From Dictyostelium discoideum (lineage: Eukaryota), in NCBI GenBank assembly GCA_000004695.1, contig CM000152.2, positions 3,744,001 through 3,808,000 on the forward strand: a DNA stretch of 64,000 bases, written 5' to 3'. Below, one piece after another: positions 1 through 62,895 of the stretch (the first letter of the stretch is position 1; every line of letters begins with the position of its first letter). Made by a program: the position numbers and the translations under genes. Under the pieces are notes generated by a model. That model made no database searches. It had not been told where the DNA came from and was given only the letters and a program-made list of their open reading frames with translations.

Positions 1-77
1 AAAAAAAAAAAAAAAAAAATATCCTTGAATGGAAATTAATTTATTGTTAAAATTTTTTTATTTATTGTATTCTTTTG

Positions 78-2888
78 TTATTTTGATTTTAATATTTTCA
101 TTTTTAAAGAATTTTTATCTTTTGCAGAGAAATCAATAAAATCTATTAATAGATTTGATAATTCAAAATTTGATGAATTTATTGATTTGACAACTATATC
201 ATTTAATAATTTTGAATCAAATAATGATGATTGATTTGATTTAGTTTGAATTTTTAATAAATATTTACTGTTTTGATCGGATGATATTATGTTTTTAAAT
301 ATTTGAGTGTAGCCTTTTTTAGATGCAATACAGAGACAATTATAAAGATAATTGATTGTATTATTATTTAGATTTTCAATAAAATAATTGATAAATAATT
401 CAAGGTAATAACTTGACGATATACCATATATACAATATTCATTTGTAAAAATTGAAAAATAATCAGGATTAAATAAAACCTCTGGTAATTTATCAAAAAG
501 ATAAATAATATCATCAACTCTATCTAAATTGTAAAGACAAACTAATAACATTCTGATTGAAATTGTAAAATTGAATGATTCTGTTTTACCAATAGTTAAA
601 CATCCAACATCTTTACTCTTTTTAGGTGATAAAAGATTTGCTGTGGTTGTTGTAGTTGTGGCTGTCAATGTAGTTGTGAGTTCAATTTTACTTTTAATTT
701 CTTCAAAGTTTTTATTATCAGTTTTTAAATTAATTACTTTTAACTTTGTTTCAATTGATTCTTTTGAAATATTATTAAATAAAAACTTGATAAAAGTTAA
801 CATTTTGCCTTTATATGGATTAAAACTAGATTCAAAAAATTTCAAATCCAATGGATGTTTTAATTGTGCATTTGATAAAAAGTTAATAATTGAATTTTCT
901 TTGTTATCTTTTATATTCAAATCAACTAGCCCTTCAAAAACAATATCAAAATAACCATCAAAACCAATTGAATATACCGATGGTTTTAAAATTGCTCTAT
1001 TTAATCGATCTAAAAAATTTTGATCAAACCAAGGAGTAAAATCTAATTTGCATCTTTTCCCAATACTATCCATTAAATATTCATAATGTTCAATAAGTTC
1101 TAATTGAATTTGTTTCCAAATTTCATTTTGATCATCAAATAATAAAGATTCGTCTCTGTAATTTTGAAAATAAAAGTCTAATATTTCTTTTTTATCGATA
1201 AGATTACAATAATTGCCTATTAATTTACCAATGTTAGGATATCTAGTTATTTTTTGTATTTTATTAGGTTGTTGCATTAATATTTTTAAAAAATAATCTA
1301 TTAGCTCTATATCATTACTTGAAAATACTGCTTTAAAAAATATATAATGATCATATTCTTTAAAAGTTTTCACATATTTATTATCTAAAACATTTGATAT
1401 TAATTCGAATTTTTCATTTTTTTCAATGTTTATATCTTTTAATATGCTTTGAAAAAATAATTGATGATCAAAACTTCTACCATTCCATTTATTGACAACA
1501 CGCTCATACATTTTATCTACACTTTCTTTTTTAAAATTTAAATAATAGAGTAATGGTTTTCTAAAAAACATTTCAGTTGCAGAATTGACTGTGCAATAGA
1601 AAAATAAACAAATTGATTTATAATATTTTTTAATAATTTCTTTTAAATTAATATTATTACTTGCTGTAGATGTTATTGTTAAATTGGGTGTTGAGGTTGA
1701 GGTTGAGGTTGGAGTGGTATGATTTAATAGATTTTTAATTGTTGAATTTAATTGATCATTTGTAAATTGTGATGTTTGTATTTCATTTAATTCTAAAATT
1801 ATTTGATTTAATTTTTCATAATACTTTATATTACTAGGATGTATTTTGATTTTTTCTTTTTGTTTTTGTTGTTCCATTCGTTCTTGTAAGTTTGTTGATT
1901 CTATTAATCTTTTATATGATTTTATTAGTTTTTTAAATTTATTATCGAATGAAAGAAATTTTGATAAATCGGTGCTAATGAATGGCAATAATGTATGTGA
2001 TGTTGGAAGACTATTAATTGATTTTAAGTAATTGTAAATTTTTAATTTATCATATGTAGTATTACCAAAAACCGATGGGTCAATATGAATTTTCATAACT
2101 TTTTTAATAACTTCTGAATCGATTTTAAAAAATTTAATAAATTGATCTAGTGCTGTAAAATTTACATGTCCAATCATTGCCTGAATCCATTTATCAATAT
2201 TTTCATCGAATTGAATAGTTGAAGAAGTTGATGTTGATGAATATCTTGAAAATAATAAATTATAAAATGATTTTGTTTTTTCATCATTTTTTTTAAATTT
2301 ATGAATAATATTGGCAATATTGATTTTATTTCTTATTATTTGATGATTATTATTACTTTTAATATTATCTATAATTATTTCCATTGAATTACTTGTGTCA
2401 TTTAAATAGGAACGATCACAACCTATTAAATCATAATAACCATATTGTTTATTTTTAAAATTTGAAAATATGTGTTTAAATATTACTATATTTCTAAAAA
2501 CTTTCCAAAAATAATTTTCAACTGGTTCAACATCTTTAAATGTTAATATATATTGTTTTTCTTGTGGTTGTGGTTGTTGTTGTTCCTCTTCTTTTTTTTC
2601 TTCTTGTTGATTGGTTTCATTATTTGTAAGATTGTTTTTTACTTTTTTTGATAAAAAATAACCTTCAATTCTATTATAGACTAATTGTTTTTTACCATTA
2701 CTTGCTAAACCTAATGATTTTGCAATTATTTGTAATTCTCTGTAATTTGTTGAACCACTGTCAAAATCTTTTTTAAACTTTTTATAAGTTAATAAACCAT
2801 TATCAATGCCATCACTATCATCATCATCATTGTCTTTTTCATGATGTCCATCAATAGTATCGATTTCTTTTCTTTTATTACTTATCAT
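78..2888 (-). CDS. SAP-domain protein, tandem paralog 1 (936 aa); Dictyostelium-type family of unknown function
   Basis: The 936-aa ORF is uninterrupted. Residues about 30-75 ([46 protein letters not shown]) fit the SAP motif. The protein is collinear with, and highly similar to, the ORFs at 3630..6581 and 7748..10420. The 3' flank (polyA plus ATCCTTGAATGGAAATTAATTTATT) is repeated after each copy. Confidence 0.7.
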
Positions 2889-3138
2889 TTTTATAATAAA
2901 AATAAAATAAAATTATTAATTGTTTGATTGATTTTGTAATTTTGAAAAAAAAAAAAAAAAAAAAAAAAAAGTGCGTATCAAATTCGGCAAACCTGTTTTT
3001 TTACGTTAGTTTTTTAAGCAAAATTTTTATTATTTTTTTTTAAAACATTTAATTTTAATTTTAATTTTTTTTTTTTTTTCTTTTGTCAGGTGCAACTATT
3101 CATTTTTTTTAAAAAAAAAATTGCTATGAGATGATCAG

Positions 3139-3180
3139 AGATTATCAGAAAGGATCAGAAAGGATTAGAAAGGATCAGAA
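3139..3180. repeat. tandem decamer repeat (GGATCAGAAA/GGATTAGAAA) x4
   Basis: The sequence ggatcagaaaggatcagaaaggattagaaaggatcagaaa is read directly. Confidence 0.8.
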
Positions 3181-3532
3181 AATTTTTTTTTTATATTGCA
3201 ACTTATAATTATTTATTTATTATTTATTTATTTTTTTTTTTTTTATTTTTTTTTTTATTTTAAATTTTTTTTTAATGTTTTTTTTATAAAATATTCAAAA
3301 TCTGTTAATTATTTTTTTTCTTTCAATCGAATTGGACTCAAAAAAAAAAAAAAAATTCAAAAAATAGAATGATTAACTGATTTTTTCATTTTTTTTTTTT
3401 TTTTTTCTGAATTTCGTTAATGAGCTCTATTTATATTTTTTTTTTTATTGGTTTTTTTTGATTTCTTTTTATAAAAAATCTATAAAAAATTCTTTCAAAA
3501 TCTGTTAATTATTTTTTTTTAACAACAATTCG

Positions 3533-3571
<39 letters not shown>

Positions 3572-3629
3572 AAAAAAAAACTTTGAATGGAAATTAATTT
3601 ATTATTAAATTTTTTATTGTATTCTTTTG

Positions 3630-6581
3630 TTATTTTGATTTTATTATTTTCATTTTTAAAGTATTTTTATCTTTTTCTGAGAAATCAATAAAATCTATTA
3701 ATAGATTTGATAATTCAAAATTTAATGAATTTATTGATTTGACAACTATATCATTTAATAATTTTGAACTAAATAATGATGATTGATTTGATTTAGTTCG
3801 AATTTTTAATAAATATTTACTATTATGATCGGATGATATTATGTTTTTAAATATTTGAGTGTAACCTTTTTTAGAAGCAATACAAAGACAATTATAAAGA
3901 TAATTGATTGTATTATTATTTAGATTTTCAATAAAATAATTGATAAATAATTCAAGGTAATAACTTGACGATATACCATACAAACAATGTTCTTTTGTAA
4001 AAATTGAAAAATAATCAGGATTAAATAAAACTTCTGGTAATTTATCAAAAAGATAAATAATATCATCAACTCTATCTAGTCTGTAAAGACAAACTAATAA
4101 TATTCTAATTGAAACTGTAAAATTGAATGATTCTGTTTGGCCAATAATGAAAAATCCAACATCTTCACCTTTTTTAGCTGATAAAAGATTTGTTGCGGTT
4201 GCTGTTGTTCCTGTTGTGGTTGTTGTTGTGGTAGTTGTTGTGGTTGTCAATGTGGTGGTGAGTACAATTTCACTATTAATTTCTTCAAAGTTTTTATTAT
4301 CAGTTTTTAAATTAATTACTTTTAACTTTGTTTCAATAGATTCTTTTGAAATATTATTAAATAAAAACTTGATAAAAGTTAACATTTTACTTTTATATCG
4401 ATTAAAACTAGATTCTAAAATTGGAGAAACATATAATGGATGTTTTAATTGTGCATTTGATAAAAAGTGAATAATTGAATTTTCTTTGGAGTCTTCCGTA
4501 TTCGAATCAATTAGCCCTTTGAAAATAAAATTAAAATTAAAATTAATAGTGCCACGAAAATCAAAATAGTATAAGAGTGGTTTTGCAATTGTTCTATTTA
4601 ATCGATCTAAAAATTTTGAACTATCAAACCAACGGAAAATATCAAAATTGCATCTGTTTCCAATACTACCCGTTAAATATTCATAATGTTCAATAAGTCC
4701 TAATTGAATTCGTTTCCAAGTTTGATTTTGATCATTAAATAATAAACATTCATCTCTGTAATTTTGAAAATAAAAGTCTAATATTTCTTTTTTATCGATA
4801 AAATGACAATAATCGCTTATTAAACTACCAATAACTGGGAAGGTAGTTGTTTCTGGTGTTTGATTGAGTTGTTGTTGCTTTAATATTTTTAAAAAATAAT
4901 CAATTAACTCTATATCATTACTTGAAAATACTGCTTCAAAAAATATATGAAGATCTTTTAATTTAAAAGTTTTCACATATTTATTATTTAAAACATTTGA
5001 TATTAATTCGAATTTTTCATTTTTTTCAATTTTTATATCTTTAAATATTCTTTGAAAAAATAATTTATGATCAAAATTACTACCATTCCATTTTTTGATA
5101 ACATGCTCATACATTTTATCTACCCTTTCTTTTTTAAAATATAAATAATAAAGTAATGGTTTTCTAAAAATAGTTTTATTTGCTGAATTAATTGTGAAAT
5201 AAATAAATAAATAAATTGATTTATAATATTTTTTAATAATTTCTTTTAAATTAATATTATTGTTGTTATTGTTAGTGCTGCTGTAATTACTTTCTGTAGA
5301 TATTATTGTGAGATTGGTTGTTTTTAATGATGTTGAGGTAGAGGTAGAGGTTGAGGTATATGTAGATGTAGAGGTTGAGGTTGAGGTTGAGGTTGAGGTT
5401 GGAGTGGTATGATTTAATAATTTTTTAATTGTTGAATTTAATTGATAATTTGTAAATTGTGATGTTTGTATTTCATTTAATTCTAATATTTTTTGATTTA
5501 ATTTTTCATAATACTTTTTATTAGGATGTATTTTAATTATTCCTTGTTTTTCTAGTTGTTCTTGTTGTTCTTGTAAGTTTGTTGATTCTATTAATCTTTT
5601 ATAAGATTTTATAAGTTTTTTAAATTTATTATCGAATGAAAGAAGTGTTGAAAAATTGATGCTAATAGTTGATAATAATGTATGTGATGTTGGAATACTA
5701 TTAATTGATTTTAAGTAATTGTAAATTTTTAATTTATCATATGTAGTATTACCAAAGAATGATGGATCAATATGAATTTTTATAGCTTTTTTAATAACTT
5801 CTGAATCGATTTTAAAAAATTTAATAAATTGATCTAGTGCTGTGTAATTTACATTTTCAATCATTCTTTGAATCCATATATCAATATTTCCATCGAATTG
5901 AATAGTTGAAGGTAGTTGTGTTGATGGTGAAGTTGATGTAGATGAATATCTTGAAAATAATAAATTATAAAATGATCTTGTTTTTTCATCGTTTTTTTTA
6001 AATTTATTAATAATGTCTATAATATTGCTTTCATTTCTTATTATTTGATGATTATAGCTTTTTATATTATCTATAATTATTTCCATTGAATTACTTTTTC
6101 CATTTAAAAGGATTTCATCACAACCTATTAAATCATAATAACTGTATTGTTTACTTTTAAAATTTGAAAATATGTGTTTAAATATTACTATATTTCTAAA
6201 TATTTTCCAAAAATAAATTTCAACTGGTTCAACATCTTTAAATGTTAATATATATTGTTTTTCTTGTGGTTGTGGTTGTTGTTGTTCTTTTTTTTTTTCT
6301 ACTTGTCGATTGGTTTCATTATTTGTAAGATTGTTTTTTACTTTTTTTGATAAAAAATAACCTTCAATTCTATTATAGACTAATTGTTTTTTACCATTAC
6401 TTGCTAAACCTAATGATTTTGCAATTATTTGTAATTCTCTGTAATTTGTTGAACCACTTTCAAAATCTTTTTTAAACTTTTTATATGTTAATAAACCATT
6501 ATCAATGCCATCACTATCATCATTATTTTTTTCATGATGTTCATTAATAGTATCGATTTCTTTTCTTTTATTACTTATCAT
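3630..6581 (-). CDS. SAP-domain protein, tandem paralog 2 (983 aa)
   Basis: The 983-aa ORF starts [12 protein letters not shown] like copy 1. It carries the same SAP-like block [29 protein letters not shown]. Its T/S-rich and T-rich low-complexity stretches are expanded relative to copy 1. Confidence 0.7.
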
Positions 6582-6679
6582 TTTTGTTAGAAAAATAAAA
6601 TAAAATTTTTAATTGTTTGATTGGTTTCAAAATTATGGAAAAAAAAAAAAAAAAAAAAAGAGCCTTGTTGGATATTTTT

Positions 6680-6960
6680 TTTTTTTTATTTTGGTGTTAT
6701 GAAAAAGTTAATTAATTTTTGGGCAAGATATTATTTTTTTTTTTTGGTGTTGTGAAAAAATTAATGGTGTTTTTTTTATTTTTTTTTTATTTTGGTGTTA
6801 TGAAAAAATTAATTGATTTTTGGGCAAGACATTATTTTTTTTTTTTTTTTTTTTTTTTTTGGAGTTATGAAAAAATTAATAGCATTTTTTTTATTTTTTT
6901 TTTTTTTATTTTTTTTTTTTTTTTTCTTTTGGTGTTGTGGAAATATTAATTGATTTTCGG
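6680..6960. repeat. minisatellite, about 5 copies of an about 60-bp unit (TTTTGGTGTTATGAAAAAATTAAT...[23 protein letters not shown])
   Basis: The core ttggtgttatgaaaaa(a/g)ttaat recurs at about 6691, 6745, 6790, 6850 and 6930, separated by T-runs. It is absent from the equivalent spacer between copies 1 and 2. Confidence 0.7.
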
Positions 6961-7607
6961 GCCAGATATTAATTTTTTTCTAATTTTATTTCAGAAAACA
7001 CAAATTCAAAATGTAAAAATGTTTTTATTTTTTTTATTTTTTTTTTATTTTTTTTTCTTTTTTATTTTTTAATTTATATTTTTTTTCTACAACATAATGA
7101 AAATTGCCAACACAAAATTTTATTTGAAAAATGGCGTGTAATAAAATAATATTGTTGTCCGCATCTAAGATGCAATAAAAGATTTGTTAGCTTGAGAGAT
7201 TTAAACAACCTTTGTGATAATATACAATTATATATTTGTCTTTTGTGTGAATTTATAAATTATTTTTTAAAATGATATATTGATACATTTTTTCCTTTTT
7301 TCTTTTTGTTTTTTATTTTTGAAAGAATTTTTTATAGCTTTTGTAAAAAAAAAAAAAAAAATTTGTTTTGTTTTAATTTTTTATTACTAATAATAAAATT
7401 CAAAAATAAAAAATAATCAATTGTGCACTTAGTATTGAATGAACGCTTTTCCAAATCGCAATTATTATTATAGCTTCTTTCTATTGGGAATTGGCGATAT
7501 TTTTGGTCTGAGCAATTCAGAAGACTTGCCATTAGGATTACATGATTTTGTACTTGGTCCAACATATTCAAAATTATACGAGCATTTAATTTTATTAATA
7601 AAATTTA

Positions 7608-7660
<53 letters not shown>

Positions 7661-7747
7661 TATATATACACTGTAAATATATCCTAGATTTTCAAATATT
7701 TAAAAATGGAAATCAATTTATTATTAAAATTTTTTATTGTATTCTTG

Positions 7748-10420
7748 TTATTTTAATTTTAATATTTTCATTTTTAAAGTATTTTGACCGTTTGCTGAGA
7801 AATCAATAAAATCTATTAATAGATTTGACAATTCAAAATTTAATGAACTTATTGATTTATCAACTATGTCATTTAATAGTTTTGAATCAAATAATGATGA
7901 TTGATTTGATTCAGTTTGAATTTTTAATAAATATTTACTGTTTTGATCGGATGATATTATGTTTTTAAATATTTGAGTGTAACCTTTTTCAGATGCAATA
8001 CAAAGACAATGATAAAGATAATTGGTTGTATCATTTAGATTTGCAATAAAATAATTGATAAATAATTCAAGGTAATAACTTGACGATATACTATATATAC
8101 AATATTCTTTTGTAAAAATTGAAGAATAATAAGATTTTAAAAAAACTTCTGGTAATTTATCAAAAAGATAAATAATATCATCAACTCTATCTAGTTTGTA
8201 AAGACAAACTAATAACGTTGTAATTGAAATTGTAAAATTGAATGATTCTGTTTTACCAATAGTTAAACATCCAACATCTTCACTTTTTTTAGGTGATAAA
8301 AGATTTGTTGCGGTTGTCAATGTAGTGGTGAATTCAATTTTACTATATTTTTCTTCAAAGTTTTTATTATCAGTTTTTAAATTAATTACTTTTAACTTTG
8401 TTTCGATTGATTCTTTTGAAATATTATTAAATAAAAACTTGATTAAAGTTAACAATTTGGCTGCATATGGACTAAAACTAGATCCTAAAATTTCCAAATC
8501 CAATGGTTGTTTAAATTGTGCATTTGATAAAAAGTTAATAATTGAATTTTCTTTGTTGTTATTTATATTCGAATCAATTAACCATTTAAAATCACTACTA
8601 CTACCACCAAAATCAATAGAATATACCAATGGTTTCATAATTGCTCTATTTAATCGATCTAAGAAATTTAAATTTTTATACCAATAAATAAAATCTAATT
8701 TGCATCTGTTTCCAATACTACCCGTTAAATATTCATAATGTTCAATAAGTTCTAATTGAATATATTTGCAATTTTCATTTTGATCATTAAATAATAAACA
8801 TTCATCTCTGTAATTTTGAAAATAAAAGTCTAATATTTCTTTTTTATCGATAAGATGACAATAATCGCATATTAATTTACCAATGCTTGGATATTTTGTT
8901 ATTTCTGGTATTTGATTAAGTTGTAATTGTTTTATTTTTTTTAAAAAATAATCTATTAACTCTATATCATTACTTGAAAATACTGCTTTAAAAAATATAT
9001 AATGATCATATTCCCTAAAAGTTTTCACATATTTATTATCTAAAACATTTAATATTAATTCGAATTTTTCATTTTTTTCAATGTTTATATCTTTTAATAT
9101 GCTTTGAAAAAATAATTTATGATCGAAACTACTGCCATTCCATTTATTGACAACACGCTCATACATTTTATCTACACTTTCTTTTTTAAATTTTAAATAA
9201 TAAAATAATCCTTTTCTAAAAACCCCTTTATTTTCAGGTTTAACTGTAAAATAAAAAAATAAATAAATTGATTCATAATATTTTTTAATAATATCTTTTA
9301 AATTAATTTTATTGTTGCTGTTGATGTTGTTGTGATTGTGATTGTTATTGTTGTTGTAGTTGCTTTCTGTAGATATTATTGTAAGATTGGTTGTGGTTGT
9401 TGTTGTGGTTGTTGTTATTGAAGTTGAGGTTGGAGTGGTATGATTTAATAAATTTTTAATTGTTGAATTTAATTGATCATTTGTAAACTGTGATGTTTGT
9501 ATTTCATTTAATTCTAATATTTTTTGATTTAATTTTTCATAATACTTTTTATTATTAGGATGTATTTTCAATTTTCCTTGTTTTTCTTGTTGTTCTTGTT
9601 GTTCTTGTAAGTTTGTTGATTCTATTAATCTTTTATATGATTTTATAAATTTTTTAAATTTATTATCGAATGAAAGAAATATTTCTAAATCGGTATTAAT
9701 GAATGGTAGTAATTTATGTGATGTTGGAAGACTATTAATTGATTTTAAGTAATTGTAAATTTTTAATTTACCATATGTAGTATAACCAAAGAATGATGGT
9801 TTAATATGAATTTCCATAACTTTTTTAATAGCTTCTGAATCGATTTTAAAAAATTTAATAAATTGATCCAGTGCTGTACAATTTACATTTTTAATCATTC
9901 TTTGAATCCATTTATCAATATTTTCATCGAATCGAATAGTTGAAGATAGTTGTATTGGTGAAGTTGATCCTGACGAATATCTTGAAAATAATAAATTATA
10001 AAATGATCTTGTTTTTTCATCATTTTTTTTAAATGTATGAATAATGTCTATAATATTGCTTTCATTTCTTATTATTTGATGATTATTATTGCTTTTAATA
10101 TTATCTATAATTATTTCCATTGAATTAGTTCTGCCATTTAAAAAAAAGATTTCATCACAACCTATTAAATCATAATAACCATATTGTTTACTTTTAAAAT
10201 TTGAAAATATGTGTTTAAATATAAATATATTTCTAAAAACTTTCCAAAAATAAATTTCAACTGGTTCAACATCTTTAAATGATAATATACATTGTTTTTT
10301 TTGTTGTTGTTGTGGTTGTTCTTCTTTTTTTTTTTCTTGTTGATTGCCATTATCATGATTATAGTCTTTTTCATGATGTTCATTAATATTATCGATTTCT
10401 TTTCTTTTATTATTTACCAT
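7748..10420 (-). CDS. SAP-family tandem paralog 3 (about 890 aa), lacking the SAP segment
   Basis: The listed ORF 7748..10570 begins in poly-K translated from an A-run. The first ATG in a believable context gives [18 protein letters not shown], with cat at 10418-10420 on the plus strand. The protein is collinear with copies 1 and 2 except for an in-frame loss of about 65 residues that removes the SAP motif. Confidence 0.65.
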
Positions 10421-10823
10421 TTTTAAAAGAAAAGAAATTTTAGTTTGATTTTGTTTTAAAAAAAAAGCCTTGTCGAAAGTTATTGTTTTTTTATTGTAAA
10501 CGGTGCAAATTCGAACTTTCAAAAGTTTTTTCAATTTTTTTTTTTTATTCATTTTTTTTTTTTTTTTCATTTTCTTTTTTTCCCCACCGATAATAATAAC
10601 GGATAATAACTTTTAATATATTAATTACAACCTTTATACTACAGTTTTTTTTTTTGTCTACTAAAATCATTGATGATTTTAAAACAATAGCTTTCAACTA
10701 TTGTAAAGGGTGTGACCCTCCAGTCTCGGGTGATCATGATATCGAAAAAAAAAAAAATTCATTACAATCTTTTGTGTAAACTCTCATCTTAAAGCGAACA
10801 AACAAACCACAAGTTTATAAAGT

Positions 10824-12240
10824 TTAAATAAAATTGGAAATAGTATTTGTAGTGGTGTTGAATAGAGAAAACAGTAGAAAAGCTAATTCGCATCTTTTTC
10901 CAATACTACCCATTAAATATTCATAATGTTTAATAAGTCCTAATTGAATATTTTTCCAATTTTGATTTTGATCATTAAATAATAAACATTCATCTCTGTA
11001 ATTTTGAAAATAAAAGTCTAATATTTCTTTTTTATCAACAAGACGACAATAATCTCCTATTATTTTTAGTCTTTGATTATTAAGTTGTTGTTGTTGTAAT
11101 TGCTTTATTTTTTTAAAAAAACAATCAAATAAATCTACATCATTACTTGAAAATATAAAAAATATATATAAAAATATATAAAAAAAAATGATTATCACTA
11201 ACTTGCAATGGTTTCCATTTGATTTTATCAAAACAATTTGATATTATTCTAATCTCTCATTTTTTTCAATGTTTATATCTTTTAATATGCCTTGAAAAAA
11301 TGATTGATGATCAAAATAAATACCATTCCATTTATTGATAACACCTTGATACATTTTATCTACCCTTTCTTTTCTAAAATAAATAATAGTATATTGGCTT
11401 TCTAATATATCTTTTATATAATTGAACTGTGCAATTAAAAAATAAACAAATTGATTTAATATATTTTTTAATAATATTAATTTTGTTGTTGTTTTCTTCT
11501 GTAGTTATTGCCGTTGAAGTCGAGGTTGAGTTTGGGGTTGAGGTTGAAGTTGTAGTGGTAAGTTATATAATAAATTTTAATTGTTGAATTTAATTGATCA
11601 TTTGTAAATTGTGATGTTTGTATTTCATTTAATTCTAAAATTATTTGATTTAATTTTTCATAATACTTTTTATTATTAGGATGCATTTTTAAATTTTCTT
11701 CTTGTTTTTGTTGTTCTTGTTCTTGTAAGTTTGTTGATTCTATTAATCTTTCATATGATTTTATAAGTTTTTTAAATTTATTGTCGAATGAAAGGAATCC
11801 TTGTAAATCTGCATTAATGAATGGTAATAATATATGTGATGTTGGAAGACTATTAATTGATTTTAAGTAATTATAAATTTTTAATTTGTCATATTTAGAA
11901 CTACTATAGAAAAAAGGATTAATATGAGTTTCTATAACTATTTTAATATCTTCTGAATTGATATTAATAAAATTAATAAATTGATCTAGTGCTATGCAAT
12001 TTACACTTTCAATCATTCTTTTAATCCATATATCAATATTTTCATTGAATCGAATAGTTGAGGATAGTTGTGTTGATGGTGAAGTTGATGTTGATTAATA
12101 TCTTGAAAATAATAAATTATAAAATGATCTTGTTTTTTCATCATTTTTTTTAAATTTAATAAAAATGTTGATAATATTTCTTTCATTTCTTATTATTTGA
12201 TGATTATTATTACTTTTAATATTATCTATAATTATTTCAA
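10824..12240 (-). pseudogene. decayed, truncated fourth copy of the SAP-family gene
   Basis: ORF fragments 10824..11231 ([51 protein letters not shown]) and 11477..12016 (ALDQFINF...[23 protein letters not shown]...[30 protein letters not shown]) match the middle of the paralogs in different frames. A further collinear stretch runs to about 12240. The C-terminal roughly 300 codons and the N-terminus are missing. Confidence 0.6.
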
Positions 12241-12318
12241 ATTACAAAAAAAAAAAAAAAAAAAAAAAAATAATAAAAAAATAAAATAAAATAAATAAAA
12301 GACAATTTTATTATTATT

Positions 12319-14296
12319 TTAATTATTATTATTATTATTATTATGTTGTTGTGATAACATTAAAGCATCACCAATCTCCATTAATTTTTCACCAGTTTGT
12401 TTGTATTGTAGTCTAAATTTTTCTAATTTAGTTTTATCCATTTTGATACCAAATGAGATTTGTTTTGAAATTTTATCCAAACCATCCTTAATTGCATCCA
12501 ATCCAGAGTATAGTACATCCTCACTAAATCCAATTGGAATTGGTTTGTTTGGATTATATAGTTTACCATTTGAAGAAACCATTAAACCATTTACACCATT
12601 GTTATTATTATTATTATTATTATCATTATTATTATTATTGTTGTTGTTTGTAGTAATATGATTCCCATTAATAGTACCATTTGAAAGTGTGGGTATTGGA
12701 AATACTGAAGCAATATTTATAATGTTTGAAGTTGTAAATTGATTATATCTTTCCTTTAAATTGTTTTTCTTAAATTCGTCAAATTGTTTGATTGTATTTA
12801 ATTGCTCCTTAAAACGTTCTTCATCAGGCATTTCTATTATACCCAATGGTTGAGGTAATGATTGTAAATAACTTTTTATTCTATTTAATTCTTCTGGTGG
12901 TATAATTTGATTTAATTGTTGAATAATAACTGATTCTTTTTGAATATGCTGTTGTTGCTGTTGTTGTTGCTGTTGTTGATAATTTTGTGGTTGTTGAAAA
13001 CTCTTTATTGATTTTTGAATATACATATACAATACTAAAGATGGTGATTTAAATAAATTTTGATAAATTGATTTGAAATTTGAAATTATTGTACCTTGAT
13101 CCAATTTGAATAGATACAAATTCGCTTGTGTTGAAGCACCAATTGAGGTTATTAATTTACAAGTTGAAAATTTACAATTGGGAAGTGAAGAAAGAATTGA
13201 ACAAATATCCAATACCTGTTTCAATTGAATTGGTGTAAAACTTATTAACATTATTTGATAAAATCTCTAAACCATATGAAGCTATTAAACTTTTTTCACC
13301 AAACAAATTGATTAAATCTTTATTTTCGCTAATGGAACTCAATATTAAAATAATCATTTGATTTAATAATTGAATGATTTCATTTGATTCAATAATTTTA
13401 ATTTTACTTAATAATAATAATAAATTCTCCTGTATAATAAATAAATAAATATTAGTATAATTATTAATAATAATAATTAATATGATAAACAAAGAGAAAT
13501 TACCATTAAATTTGGAGTTGAAAAAATATTTGGTTGATTTAATTTCGAAATTAAAAATGGTATTACTTTTGATTGTATATTTTGGTTTAAATTTTTTGAT
13601 AGTTGATTAATATCTATATCATCAATTATTGTAAAAAAGATACCAATTGAAATGGGTATTGATGTAATAATATCTTGATTACCAATTAATGAATCCTTTT
13701 CTAAAATATCTAAAACTAAAAGATGAAAAACTATTTCCTTTTGATTTGAATCTAAAATTTTAAATACTCTTTTCAATAAAATTGTTAATGAATTTAAAAA
13801 ATCTGTTATTTCATATCTATTATTAAATTTTAATATCTAAAAAAAAGAAAATAAAAAAAAAATAAATAAAAAAAAAATTAATATTATTGGTTATTATTTA
13901 TTATTTATTATCTATTATTTATTTATTATTATACAAACAGTTTTAATAATTAAAGCTATATTCCAATTTTGAAAATATTCTGAAGAGTAAGAAATAATTT
14001 GAAACCAAATATCGATTAAAAAATTTTGAGTGATAGGATTTGAATAATAAATTGAAGAGATTAATAAATTATAAAATTCTGTGGATTGAGTGATTGTTGA
14101 TTTTATTATTAAATTATGAAATGAATCTAAAACATTTTGATGAAACCAACTTGATTGATAAATCTCTGTTATTAAATTAGTGAAACAATTTATGCTAAAC
14201 CTAAATAACTCTATCAATATTGATTCACTATAATTCAAACTAGGAAGATTTTCAAAAACCAATAATACTAATTTAAATTCACCAAATAACTGTTGA

Positions 14297-14330
<34 letters not shown>

Positions 14331-15603
14331 TAAGACTATTATTATTATTAACTGAATTTGACAATATAACCCCAATAATTCTATCAAACCATCTTTGATC
14401 GTTAATATCAATTCGAAATAATTGTTCCAACATACAAACTATAAATTGTTTTGAATCTTCAATAATTAAATCTATATTTTCTTGATTTGGTATTGACCTA
14501 TTTGGAGGTAACTCTCTTTATAATAAATCAATGTTAGTACCAGTAGTGATAATAATAACAATAATCACCATCATCATATAAAAAATACATACATCAATAA
14601 ATCAATAATTGTTTGGATTGTTAGCAATAATAAATCTGAATCAAAATGATCTATAAACTTTTCAAAAAAGAAAAGAAACGCTTTTATATAATATCTAAAT
14701 AATTTACCACCCCTACTATTTTTTGGTTCTGAATTAAATTCATCCTATATATATATATATTAATAAATATGATCATTAGTACGACTTGTATTGATATATA
14801 TATTATTTTATAAAAATAATAATAATACTTTTTTAAAAAATTGAATATGATCTTTAAAATTAACTAAAATAGCTTGTAAAGTTTTCTCGAGTGGACTTTT
14901 AAAATTGATAAAGTTATGAATTTGAGGATATTCATTGATTATATGCCTAAATGTTAGATTGACATTTAAAAGAGCTGCAACCTTTTGATCTATACCACTT
15001 TCATATATTTTAATTAATTCATCACAAACTATTGCCATACTATTTATATTTTCACCTAAAATAAAACTAAAGAATGATTTATCATCATTTTTAATTAAAT
15101 CACAAAAACTTTGAAATGGTAAACCTAATTTCTTATTTAACTCTTCAATTTGTATTGACCAATTTTGTAGCTGCTGTTGTATTTGTTTTTGAGTTTGTGT
15201 TTGTGTTTGAGTTTGTGTTTGTGTTTGAATTTGAGTTTGATTTTGTGTTGTCGTAATTAAATTTGAAATTAAATCTTTTACTTGTTTAATTTTTTTTTGT
15301 ATAGACATTAATTGTATGGAAATTTGAATGAATGTTGGTATTACTTCAATTGATAAACAATCCATTGACGATATGAAACAATTTTCAACTAGAGAATTAT
15401 GTAGTGTTATCAATGAGAACATTTTAGGTCTACTTGCTCCTAAATTCAATAAATCATCTAATGATTTATTTAAAAATTCTATATATTCATCCAATATTCC
15501 ACTCTCTACAACTTTTTTAAATAGTAAATTTGATTTACCATTTTCAAAAAATGTTGCTATAGTCTTCCAACATAATCCACTCTCTGGGAATGTATATAAT
15601 TTA

Positions 15604-15648
<45 letters not shown>

Positions 15649-15852
15649 GCTAATTAGTTTATATTATTAATATTAATAATAATAATAAATACTTACTTTA
15701 ACTATCTTTATTATTTTATTAATATTCGAATTAAATAATTCTAAATTAAATTGTTTTGGATCTGCTAAAATTTTTAAACAGGCTGTTTTTTTTTCAGTAT
15801 TTGATGTTGGGTCCAATAATAAAAATTCTATAGCATTGTTTAAATCGCCCAT
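12319..15852 (-). CDS. multi-exon gene (at least 6 exons), hypothetical protein with a TQ-dipeptide repeat
   Basis: The ATG lies at 15852-15850 (MGDLNNAIEFLLLDPTSNTEKKTACLKILADPKQFNLELFNSNINKIIKIVK). A GTAAGT donor ends exon 1 at 15697. The acceptor aaaag at 15612/15613 opens the next exon (NGIKLYTFPESGLCWKT...ILDEYIEF...), which ends with a GTATTA donor after FFKK at 14829. The next exon starts at 14511 (LPPNRSIPNQENIDLIIEDSKQFIVCMLEQLF...). Further exons correspond to ORFs 13915..14433, 13477..13776, 13172..13492 and 12319..13251. Exact junctions for the 3' exons are not resolved. Confidence 0.5.
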
Positions 15853-16316
15853 AATGTTCTACTACTAAATAATTATCTATTTGTAAGCATAAATAAGAAA
15901 GATCGTCAAAAAATAATAAAAAAAATTATAAAAAATAAAAAAAAAATAAAAAAAATGAAAAAAAAAAATGAAAAAATGAAAATTAAAAAAAAAAAAAAAA
16001 AAAAGGTTTTTTCTTAGAAATTTTAGAAATATAAAGAAAAATCCATGTTTTGAAAAGAAAATTAAAAAAAAATTTTCCTTTTAAAAAAATAAATAAATTA
16101 AAACAAAGAATTAAATTTAAAAAATAATAATAATAGTTTATAAATAATTTTTAACTATTTTTTTTTTTTTTTTTTTTTTTTTAATTATACTATTTTTATT
16201 TATTTATTTTTTTTTTTATTTTTTTTTTATATTATTTATTTATTATTTATTATTTATGAATTAAAAAAAGTAAATATATATGTGATTGAAAGAGAGAGAT
16301 TATGATAATTGAAATT

Positions 16317-37924: not shown

Positions 37925-39504
<1,580 letters not shown>

Positions 39505-62679: not shown

Positions 62680-62895
62680 AAGTTATGACCAAACTCTTAG
62701 GATCATTTCTAGAGTATCGTCTATTAAAATTATTCATCAATAATTTTTCCTCTTTCACAGCTAGGATGATGATATACACTCACTACACGAAAGCGTGAAA
62801 CCGTTATTATCGAATGATTCATTTATTTTTTATTAACATTGATGACCGTCTAATTCAGGGATGAATTGGTTGTGTGGTGGGATTCGTACTGGCTC
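62680..62895 (+). ncRNA. U3: U3 small nucleolar RNA (box A, C', B, C present)
   Basis: Box A region: cttAGGATCATTTCTAGAGTATCGTC (compare yeast TAGGATCATTTCTATAGGAATCGTC and human GGATCATTTCTATAGTGTG). Box C': aggATGATGAtat. Box B: gaaAGCGTGAAacc (compare GAGCGTGAAG). Box C: attGATGACCGTC (compare TGATGATCGT). The 3' end is ggctc followed by T6. The length is about 215 nt, and the region is GC-richer than the surrounding AT desert. Confidence 0.75.

Follow-up and report, generated by a model that had tools for sequence, protein, structure and literature searches.

A tandem array of UPF0746 genes on chromosome 3 of Dictyostelium discoideum AX4: layout, decay and domain content

The window, a stretch of 64,000 nucleotides from chromosome 3 of Dictyostelium discoideum AX4, carries at positions 1-12242 three minus-strand paralogs that are intact (936, 983 and 890 aa) and a fourth copy reduced to a decayed fragment. 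This segment makes up most of a head-to-tail array that consists of a pseudogene and four intact UPF0746 genes, one of which lies outside the window. The array very probably evolves via tandem duplication, deletion and decay, and strains therefore vary in how many copies they have and in which of these are intact. This fast-evolving family has been catalogued before: copies 1 and 3 match the UniProt UPF0746 proteins Q54UV9 and Q54UV7 exactly and are its named members with nothing that differs, copy 1 being listed as "UPF0746 protein" in UniProt and as "SAP DNA-binding domain-containing protein" at NCBI, and the named family comes without a described function. Copy 2 and the intact copy outside the window are paralogs 73-78% identical to the named members, and copy 2 is annotated as a 983-aa gene in assembly GCA_054883475.1. 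As genes and family are present in public databases, they represent no new kind of system. What is added here is the copy-number variation between strains, the correspondence of the AX4 pseudogene to an intact gene in another strain, the detection of relatives solely in D. purpureum, D. discoideum and species close to the latter, the uneven constraint along the protein, and a large protein body without a structural relative among solved structures.

Layout of the array and its repeat units

The following features were delimited in the window:

1-77, minus strand: 3' flank of the repeat unit with an AATAAA poly(A) signal, then a run of T (self-BLASTN; equivalents at 3557-3629 and 7705-7747)
78-2888, minus strand: copy 1, intact 936-aa gene DDB_G0280787 (Q54UV9) (ORF and exact-sequence look-up)
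81-581, minus strand: C-terminal helical domain of copy 1, 167 aa, where constraint on the protein is highest (omega, AF2)
2652-2786, minus strand: predicted SAP motif of copy 1, residues ~35-79, helix/extended loop/helix (Pfam, family profile, AF2)
2889-2966, minus strand: conserved 5' flank of ~80 nt common to copies 1 and 2 (self-BLASTN; equivalent at 6582-6659)
3630-6581, minus strand: copy 2, intact paralog (983 aa) that has a SAP motif and in which the Thr/Ser tracts are longest (ORF)
6351-6485, minus strand: predicted SAP motif of copy 2 (Pfam)
7748-10420, minus strand: copy 3, intact 890-aa gene DDB_G0280811 (Q54UV7), SAP region absent (exact-sequence look-up)
10648-10878, no strand: single-copy conserved intergenic block holding a GC-rich patch at 10708-10744 (comparison with another strain)
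10878-12242, minus strand: copy 4, pseudogene fragment corresponding to copy-1 codons 170-617 only (tblastn; self-BLASTN match 10878-12238)

Open reading frames, self-BLASTN units and tblastn all bear out the earlier note in describing gene copies of a single family arranged head to tail. By self-BLASTN and a repeat search the units extend over 1-2966, 3557-6659 and 7705-10461, followed by the fragment from 10878, with about 86% DNA identity among the copies, i.e., a difference of about 14%, and 78-86% identity between the repeat units. The repeated part comprises the CDS and about 50-80 nt of flank, and the remainder of the 3.6-4.1-kb period is an unalignable AT-rich spacer. About 50 nt past the stop codon, including the AATAAA, are conserved in all three intact copies of the window, and the 3' motif quoted in the earlier note is found exactly at 21-45 and with two mismatches at 3579-3603. 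A tblastn search with copy 2 over the 64 kb detected no additional family copy outside the array. The four copies described within the window were recovered, but the array does not end with them: comparison with GCA_054883475.1 places one more intact gene, of 972 aa, just beyond the left edge of the window.

At the protein level, copy 2 is 76% identical to copy 1 and 73% identical to copy 3 over the full length, and the family alignment shows the divergence of the Thr/Ser tracts between copies that had been noticed before. The longest ORF of copy 3 spans 7748-10570 and encodes 940 aa; the actual start at 10420 yields the 890-aa protein. Its SAP region was removed by an in-frame deletion of 66 aa, and the alignment shows the same deletion in orthologs from other strains (P0003, P0004 and P0005).

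That the array results from a misassembly duplicating one locus, a possibility raised at the outset, is practically excluded and was rejected. In the independent chromosome-level assembly GCA_054883475.1 the array is present as well, at 99.8-99.9% identity, and the copies are therefore not assembly duplicates; they moreover differ by about 14% in DNA, in length and by the 66-aa deletion.

Decay, copy number and distribution

Decay and truncation of the fourth copy, already recognized from the sequence, were confirmed. The fragment aligns to coordinates 1038-2381 of the first unit, and its lesions are a TCA>TAA change at position 12097, two further stops (11082 and 11079) and indels that break the frame. 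Its ortholog in the strain assembly GCA_054859355.1 is an intact gene of 943 aa (contig L001, 2915-5746; 88% identity), and the AX4 pseudogene arose through two deletions. The conserved block at 10648-10878, which is about 89-93% identical to L001 9253-9472, adjoins copy 4 at the breakpoint of its 3' deletion. A truncation at the GC-rich junction itself, as suggested earlier, did not hold, since the patch at 10708-10744 lies about 135 nt away from the homology breakpoint at 10878. Searches of the GC-rich block for tRNAs and for Rfam families were negative, the latter also at E<=10, and inspection of the patch by eye revealed nothing that convincingly resembled a box C/D snoRNA or a class I RNA motif. 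RNA folding of the block is mildly better than that of shuffled sequences (z=-2.2, minus strand).

Copy number and the identity of the copies that stay intact differ between strains. Another D. discoideum assembly contains at least six copies, of which two are partial, and its array includes an rve-type transposon gene. In the 22.8 kb examined from D. cf. discoideum, two copies are intact and one has decayed. Such changes are explained most simply by unequal crossing-over between the units of about 86% identity. The synonymous divergence (dS) between the window copies amounts to 0.13-0.15 and orthologous copies are recognizable in other strains; the amplification, taken as recent in the earlier note, is thus not very recent. 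Pairs of the latest origin, with dS values of 0.054 and 0.048, are lineage-specific.

Exhaustive scanning of 1.84 billion proteins with HMMER returned 28 relatives. Those looked up all originate from D. discoideum, D. cf. discoideum, D. dimigraforme or D. purpureum, in agreement with the earlier suggestion of a lineage-specific family. A second, word-indexed homolog search, run with a broader alignment, yielded hardly anything new, as its candidates are dominated by words of low complexity. The D. purpureum members are very divergent (19-28% identity) and are present in many copies on different scaffolds. A literature search on UPF0746, its gene members and Dictyostelium SAP-domain proteins retrieved nothing on function.

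The SAP motif and the helical body

The intact proteins share an invariant basic N-terminus (N-KRKE), followed by the SAP motif (except in copy 3), a disordered Q/E/K-rich linker, the helical body and, at the C-terminus, a helical domain of about 120 aa that is under constraint. Scanned singly, copies 1 and 2 fail the Pfam gathering cut-offs with 15.2-15.4 against 23.9 bits for SAP and 21.4-21.6 against 26.3 bits for SAP_new25; for copy 1 the E-values are 1.7e-4 (SAP_new25) and 0.015 (SAP), both under the curated cut-off. No SAP match was found for copy 3 in the Pfam scan. Across 20 family members SAP_new25 is matched in nine (best E=4e-6) and SAP in eight (best E=1.3e-5), and the paralogs P0007-P0009 have a precomputed PF02037 match. 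A profile of the motif built from the family matches the solved SAP domain 2rno_A, which we take to be the structure of rice SIZ1, at E=1.3e-4, and the SAP domain of Hcc-1 (2do1_A) at E=0.09; in the AF2 model of copy 1 the region forms helices at residues 49-58 and 67-79 with pLDDT of about 70-76. The SAP-like motif reported for copies 1 and 2 is thus supported by evidence from the family, including the profile search for the fold that had been proposed as a check, with single-sequence scores below the Pfam cut-offs. At the family level the motif is real; DNA binding itself is predicted.

The likeness to SAP-containing nuclear proteins, such as SAF-A/B, Acinus, PIAS/SIZ1 and Hcc-1 (PF02037, PF18953), lies in an N-terminal helix-extended-helix of about 35 residues with the common pattern L..LA..LGL...GKK..LY.RI. 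In contrast to these proteins, UPF0746 proteins lack, in Pfam scans, all the partner domains of known SAP proteins, e.g., SP-RING, RRM, SPRY or PARP, and copy 3 is entirely without the motif.

The body of about 800 aa is nearly all alpha-helical in the AF2 model and resembles helical repeats, with Thr/Ser-rich loops that vary in length. The pLDDT is 71.7 for the whole protein and 88.9 for the C-terminal domain (pTM 0.85), and the motif that is best conserved across the family, residues ~124-143, is modeled with low confidence. The body had been described as having no recognizable domain, and Pfam and the comparison with solved folds agree. Pfam scans of all copies and 20 family members yielded sub-threshold SAP and Ank_5 matches alone, Foldseek with the high-confidence C-terminal domain against the PDB gave no significant match, the full-family profile against PDB sequences gave weak designer-PPR and SAP matches alone, and hhalign among four protein segments detected no internal repeats.

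A long, almost wholly alpha-helical body is a trait shared with alpha-solenoid or helical-repeat proteins (HEAT/ARM, ankyrin, PPR/TPR). Its best, weak structural neighbors are SF3B1, transportins, CAND1, Scc2 and short ankyrin domains, and one hairpin containing LLvcLY is similar to a PPR/TPR repeat. Ankyrin repeats were considered and rejected because Foldseek of the C-terminal domain gave nothing significant, the Ank match being below the Pfam cut-off. PPR/TPR repeats were rejected as well: the designer-PPR match at E=5e-9 reflects one 27-residue hairpin rematched to identical designed repeats, single stretches having E>=40, and no Pfam PPR or TPR match occurs in any of the copies or of the 20 family members.

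Selection, proposed function and alternatives

In parsimony counts over nine intact copies the whole gene has an omega of 0.77 (P=6e-4 against omega=1). Constraint is strongest in the C-terminus (residues 815-936; omega 0.36, P=2e-6), and the central region (residues ~540-708) is indistinguishable from 1 (omega 1.01, P=0.94), with pN/pS of 1.03-1.22 in sliding windows. Pairwise omega between copies is 0.5-0.95, which is high, so that part of the protein may be weakly constrained. About 7% of the single-base changes in these sequences would make a stop, and about 77 nonsense changes would be expected if every mutation were accepted; none is found in the nine intact copies of about 900 codons, a test that is biased because these copies were picked as intact.

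A possible, tentative reading is that UPF0746 proteins are nuclear scaffolds tethered to DNA. The proteins would be located in the nucleus, where the putative SAP motif would anchor them to AT-rich DNA or chromatin, and the helical body may serve as a protein-binding scaffold in which the central residues ~540-708 are free to vary. Copy 3, lacking the SAP region, might act untethered or as a competitor. The family would be important only if it takes part in a genetic conflict or in a chromatin function specific to social amoebae.

Such a conflict, in which the central region diversifies in an arms race or for self-recognition, the proteins recognizing rapidly changing targets (e.g., retroelements, nuclear-acting pathogen effectors or selfish genes), and copy-number variation is adaptive, is unlikely on present evidence. 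It would fit a center in which pN/pS reaches 1.03-1.22 and omega 1.01 while the reading frames nonetheless remain open, as well as the strain-variable copy number and intact set, the rve-type transposon gene in one strain's array, the confinement to the D. discoideum/D. purpureum lineage and the 19-28% identity within D. purpureum. However, the central omega does not differ from 1 (P=0.94), which relaxed constraint explains equally well, and Pfam detects no domain linked to immunity, nuclease activity or recognition. Less probable still is functionless decay, with young duplicates drifting to pseudogenes and intactness being transient: the pairwise omega of 0.5-0.95, several truncated or rearranged copies in each genome examined and a literature without a paper on any member are in line with it, but the constrained C-terminus, the persistence of members over the D. 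discoideum/D. purpureum divergence and, within the limits of nine ORFs chosen as intact, the absence of the ~77 expected nonsense changes argue against it. The scaffold reading could also be combined with conflict, so that a nuclear, chromatin-tethered helical-repeat family confined to this Dictyostelium lineage would be engaged in an ongoing conflict, for instance with retroelements, nuclear-acting pathogen effectors or selfish elements, which its variable center and strain-specific copy number would mirror, and the SAP-less copy would act as decoy or modulator; we consider this compound proposal speculative and improbable.

The many D. purpureum copies scattered over scaffolds and the rve gene inside the array of one strain might suggest that each unit represents a mobile-element ORF, spread by transposition and not by tandem duplication. 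This is very improbable and was largely rejected, as Pfam finds no transposase, integrase or reverse-transcriptase domain, terminal repeats are absent, with the inverted matches in self-BLASTN being low-complexity alone, and the copies are adjacent, in the same orientation and syntenic between strains, where they have positional orthologs.

Tandem array of UPF0746 genes

Self-BLASTN, repeat finding and ORF calling located a head-to-tail array of one gene family, as proposed in the earlier note, with repeat units at 1-2966, 3557-6659 and 7705-10461, an inter-unit DNA identity of 78-86% (self-BLASTN) and a window G+C of about 20%. No further copies were found in the 64-kb window by tblastn with copy 2 as query. 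The three intact genes are:

78-2888, minus strand, copy 1, ORF of 936 aa
3630-6581, minus strand, copy 2, ORF of 983 aa
7748-10420, minus strand, copy 3, 890 aa (7748-10570 and 940 aa as listed by the ORF finder)

The start of copy 3 is placed at 10420 and not at 10570 because the annotated protein and its orthologs begin there; the 50 extra codons of the ORF finder (10421-10570) are an open, poly-A-rich, non-coding leader. What the units share is limited to the CDS with about 80 nt of 5' flank and about 50 nt of 3' flank; all other spacer is AT-rich and unalignable. The 3' piece includes AATAAA and corresponds, in reverse complement, to the 3' flank motif quoted in the earlier note, which occurs exactly at 21-45 and with two mismatches at 3579-3603. 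Just upstream of copy 2, 6653-7068 is made up of tandem repeats of 53-, 67-, 101- and 137-nt period (unit about TTTTGGTGTTATGAAAAAATTAATTGATTTTTGGGCAAGATATTA); comparable tandem repeats were not found upstream of copies 1 and 3.

In the independent chromosome assembly GCA_054883475.1 (locus L003), a further intact UPF0746 gene of 972 aa lies at 13203-16121, immediately beyond the left end of the window, so the array is cut by the window edge. Copy 1 has its closest relative in this off-window gene (dS=0.054). L003 also bears on the possibility, raised earlier as a refutation, that the copies are assembly duplicates: DNA divergence between the copies is about 14% and the array is reproduced in L003 at 99.8-99.9% identity, so an artefact can practically be dismissed.

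By exact-sequence look-up, copy 1 is DDB_G0280787 (UniProt Q54UV9), named "UPF0746 protein" in UniRef and SAP DNA-binding domain-containing protein at NCBI, and copy 3 is DDB_G0280811 (Q54UV7), a UPF0746 protein as well. For copy 2 the protein collection has no entry identical to its 983-aa translation; the copy is annotated as a 983-aa gene in L003. These identities place the window on chromosome 3 of D. discoideum AX4. The array is real and its earlier interpretation essentially right, the family being already catalogued in public databases, as an uncharacterised one, and so not new. The full-text literature yielded no functional paper on UPF0746 or on six of its gene IDs, the sole match being a passing mention of a glutamine tract in DDB_G0281095.

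Searched exhaustively with the family profile (HMMER), a set of 1.84 billion representative proteins gave 28 matches at E<=1e-3. The source organism was looked up for part of these, and among them only D. discoideum strains, D. cf. discoideum, D. dimigraforme and D. purpureum were represented, which supports the suspicion of a lineage-specific family. D. purpureum has at least 12 very divergent members on different scaffolds (19-28% identity for those aligned), and the match set includes a distant D. discoideum paralog, Q54TP0. Such tandem families confined to one lineage are nothing unusual in Dictyostelium.

The decayed copy and array dynamics between strains

The fragment at 10878-12238 corresponds to unit-1 coordinates 1038-2381 (self-BLASTN) and represents only codons 170-617 of copy 1, at 89% identity. 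It carries a TCA>TAA change at 12097, is interrupted by two more stops (11082 and 11079) and has indels that break the frame; tblastn returns it as two pieces, each in another frame, and the short ORFs at 10824-11231 and 11477-12016 translate into pieces of one UPF0746-type protein. The decayed, truncated fourth copy described from the sequence is hereby confirmed.

Its breakpoints were placed by comparison with L001, the locus from another D. discoideum assembly (GCA_054859355.1). The gene flanking the array upstream (window 13451-12246) matches L001 918-2117 at 95%, and the best match of the fragment (88%) is the first gene of the L001 array at 2915-5746, which is intact, encodes 943 aa and has a SAP-type N-terminus. 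AX4 lacks L001 2117-3418, where the promoter and roughly 170 initial codons of this gene lie, and L001 4789-9253, which holds its 3' third, one additional rearranged copy and part of the spacer. The truncation had been assigned to a GC-rich junction; the truncation itself holds but the exact site does not, since the 3' breakpoint lies at 10878 and the GC-rich string (10708-10744) about 135 nt away, within a conserved block at 10648-10878 that adjoins the breakpoint.

This block occurs once per locus, with about 89-93% identity to L001 9253-9472, and the neighbouring spacer is unalignable with the other strain. It matched no tRNA or Rfam family, even at E<=10, and its minus strand folds into three hairpins slightly better than shuffles (z=-2.2). 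Candidate identities for the block are a promoter element, a small RNA and a transposon relic.

L001 contains at least six UPF0746 units, four of full length (the last passing the locus end) and two partial or rearranged, and an rve/rve_3 integrase-domain gene at 12993-14500 lies within its array, adjoining a 5'-truncated copy; the corresponding place in AX4 is without an rve-type gene. The 22.8 kb covered of D. cf. discoideum include a decayed copy and two of full length. In an NJ tree the genes that lack the SAP motif in AX4 and L001 form an ortholog pair, AX4 copy 1 groups with the off-window copy, and the two D. cf. discoideum copies group together (dS=0.048); the latter two pairs point to lineage-specific duplication or gene conversion. 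The array evolves as a tandem family by duplication and loss, for which unequal crossing-over between units would be the simplest mechanism.

SAP motif, protein body and uneven constraint

The SAP-like motif noted in copies 1 and 2 is supported at the profile level, while their single-sequence Pfam matches are sub-threshold (SAP_new25 E=1.7e-4, SAP E=0.015). SAP_new25 matched 9 and SAP 8 of 20 family members (best E=4e-6 and 1.3e-5, respectively), and PF02037 is precomputed for three UPF0746 paralog proteins (P0007-P0009). A motif profile from nine members, searched against solved structures, reached the SAP domain 2rno_A, which we take to be rice SIZ1, at E=1.3e-4 and the Hcc-1 SAP domain at E=0.089; profile search does detect a SAP motif, so the earlier refuting case of a profile search without a SAP fold falls away. 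The motif is missing, through a clean 66-aa in-frame deletion, from copy 3 and from the orthologs of this copy in two further strains.

AlphaFold2 (20-sequence alignment; mean pLDDT 71.7, pTM 0.58) predicts SAP helices, a disordered linker at 81-120 and, from there up to residue 936, an almost wholly alpha-helical body with a few short strands at residues 613-777. Foldseek of the whole model against the PDB returned nothing at E<=1e-3, the top matches being generic solenoids (SF3B1, transportins, CAND1; TM<0.25), and the C-terminal 167 aa modelled separately (pLDDT 88.9, pTM 0.85) likewise lacked significant neighbours in the PDB (best E=0.76). Matches to designer PPR proteins were rejected, as one hairpin was repeatedly aligned to identical designed repeats, and segment-vs-segment hhalign found no internal repeats. 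From these results the body is predicted to be helical and repeat-protein-like, belonging to no recognised repeat family.

Constraint along the protein is uneven. Pairwise dN/dS is 0.48-0.95, with dS of 0.13-0.15 among the window copies. Parsimony counts on nine intact genes gave omega=0.77 overall (P=6e-4 vs 1), 0.36 for residues 815-936 (P=2e-6) and 1.01 for residues 540-708, within which sliding windows rise up to 1.2. A single-base change creates a stop in about 7% of cases in these AT-rich codons, and no nonsense event was observed vs about 77 expected if every change were accepted, a comparison to be read with the caveat that the nine genes were picked for intactness. UPF0746 genes are maintained, and large parts of their proteins are weakly constrained or diversifying, both of which fit the counts alike.

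Tentatively, the proteins may be nuclear: the SAP motif, together with the KRK that is invariant at the N-terminus, would put them on AT-rich DNA in the nucleus, where the helical body would serve as a protein-interaction scaffold; copy 3, having no SAP motif, would then be the untethered form. A conflict or recognition family, to which the omega near or above 1 at residues 540-708 is relevant, appears unlikely, and a decaying family without function, to be set against the nonsense count and the low omega at residues 815-936, is quite improbable. That the unit is a transposon ORF is very improbable; the integrase-domain gene within the L001 array would speak for it. The tethered scaffold remains the tentative reading.

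Other features of the window

A U3 snoRNA gene lies at 62685-62893 on the plus strand (full-length match to Rfam RF00012, 88.8 bits, E=4e-18). A very long TTG/CAA trinucleotide array of about 315 units (37991-38955) and a 21-nt repeat in 11 copies (39137-39373) overlap the ORF 38446-39504 and account for a GC-skew spike of 0.6 at 38-40 kb.
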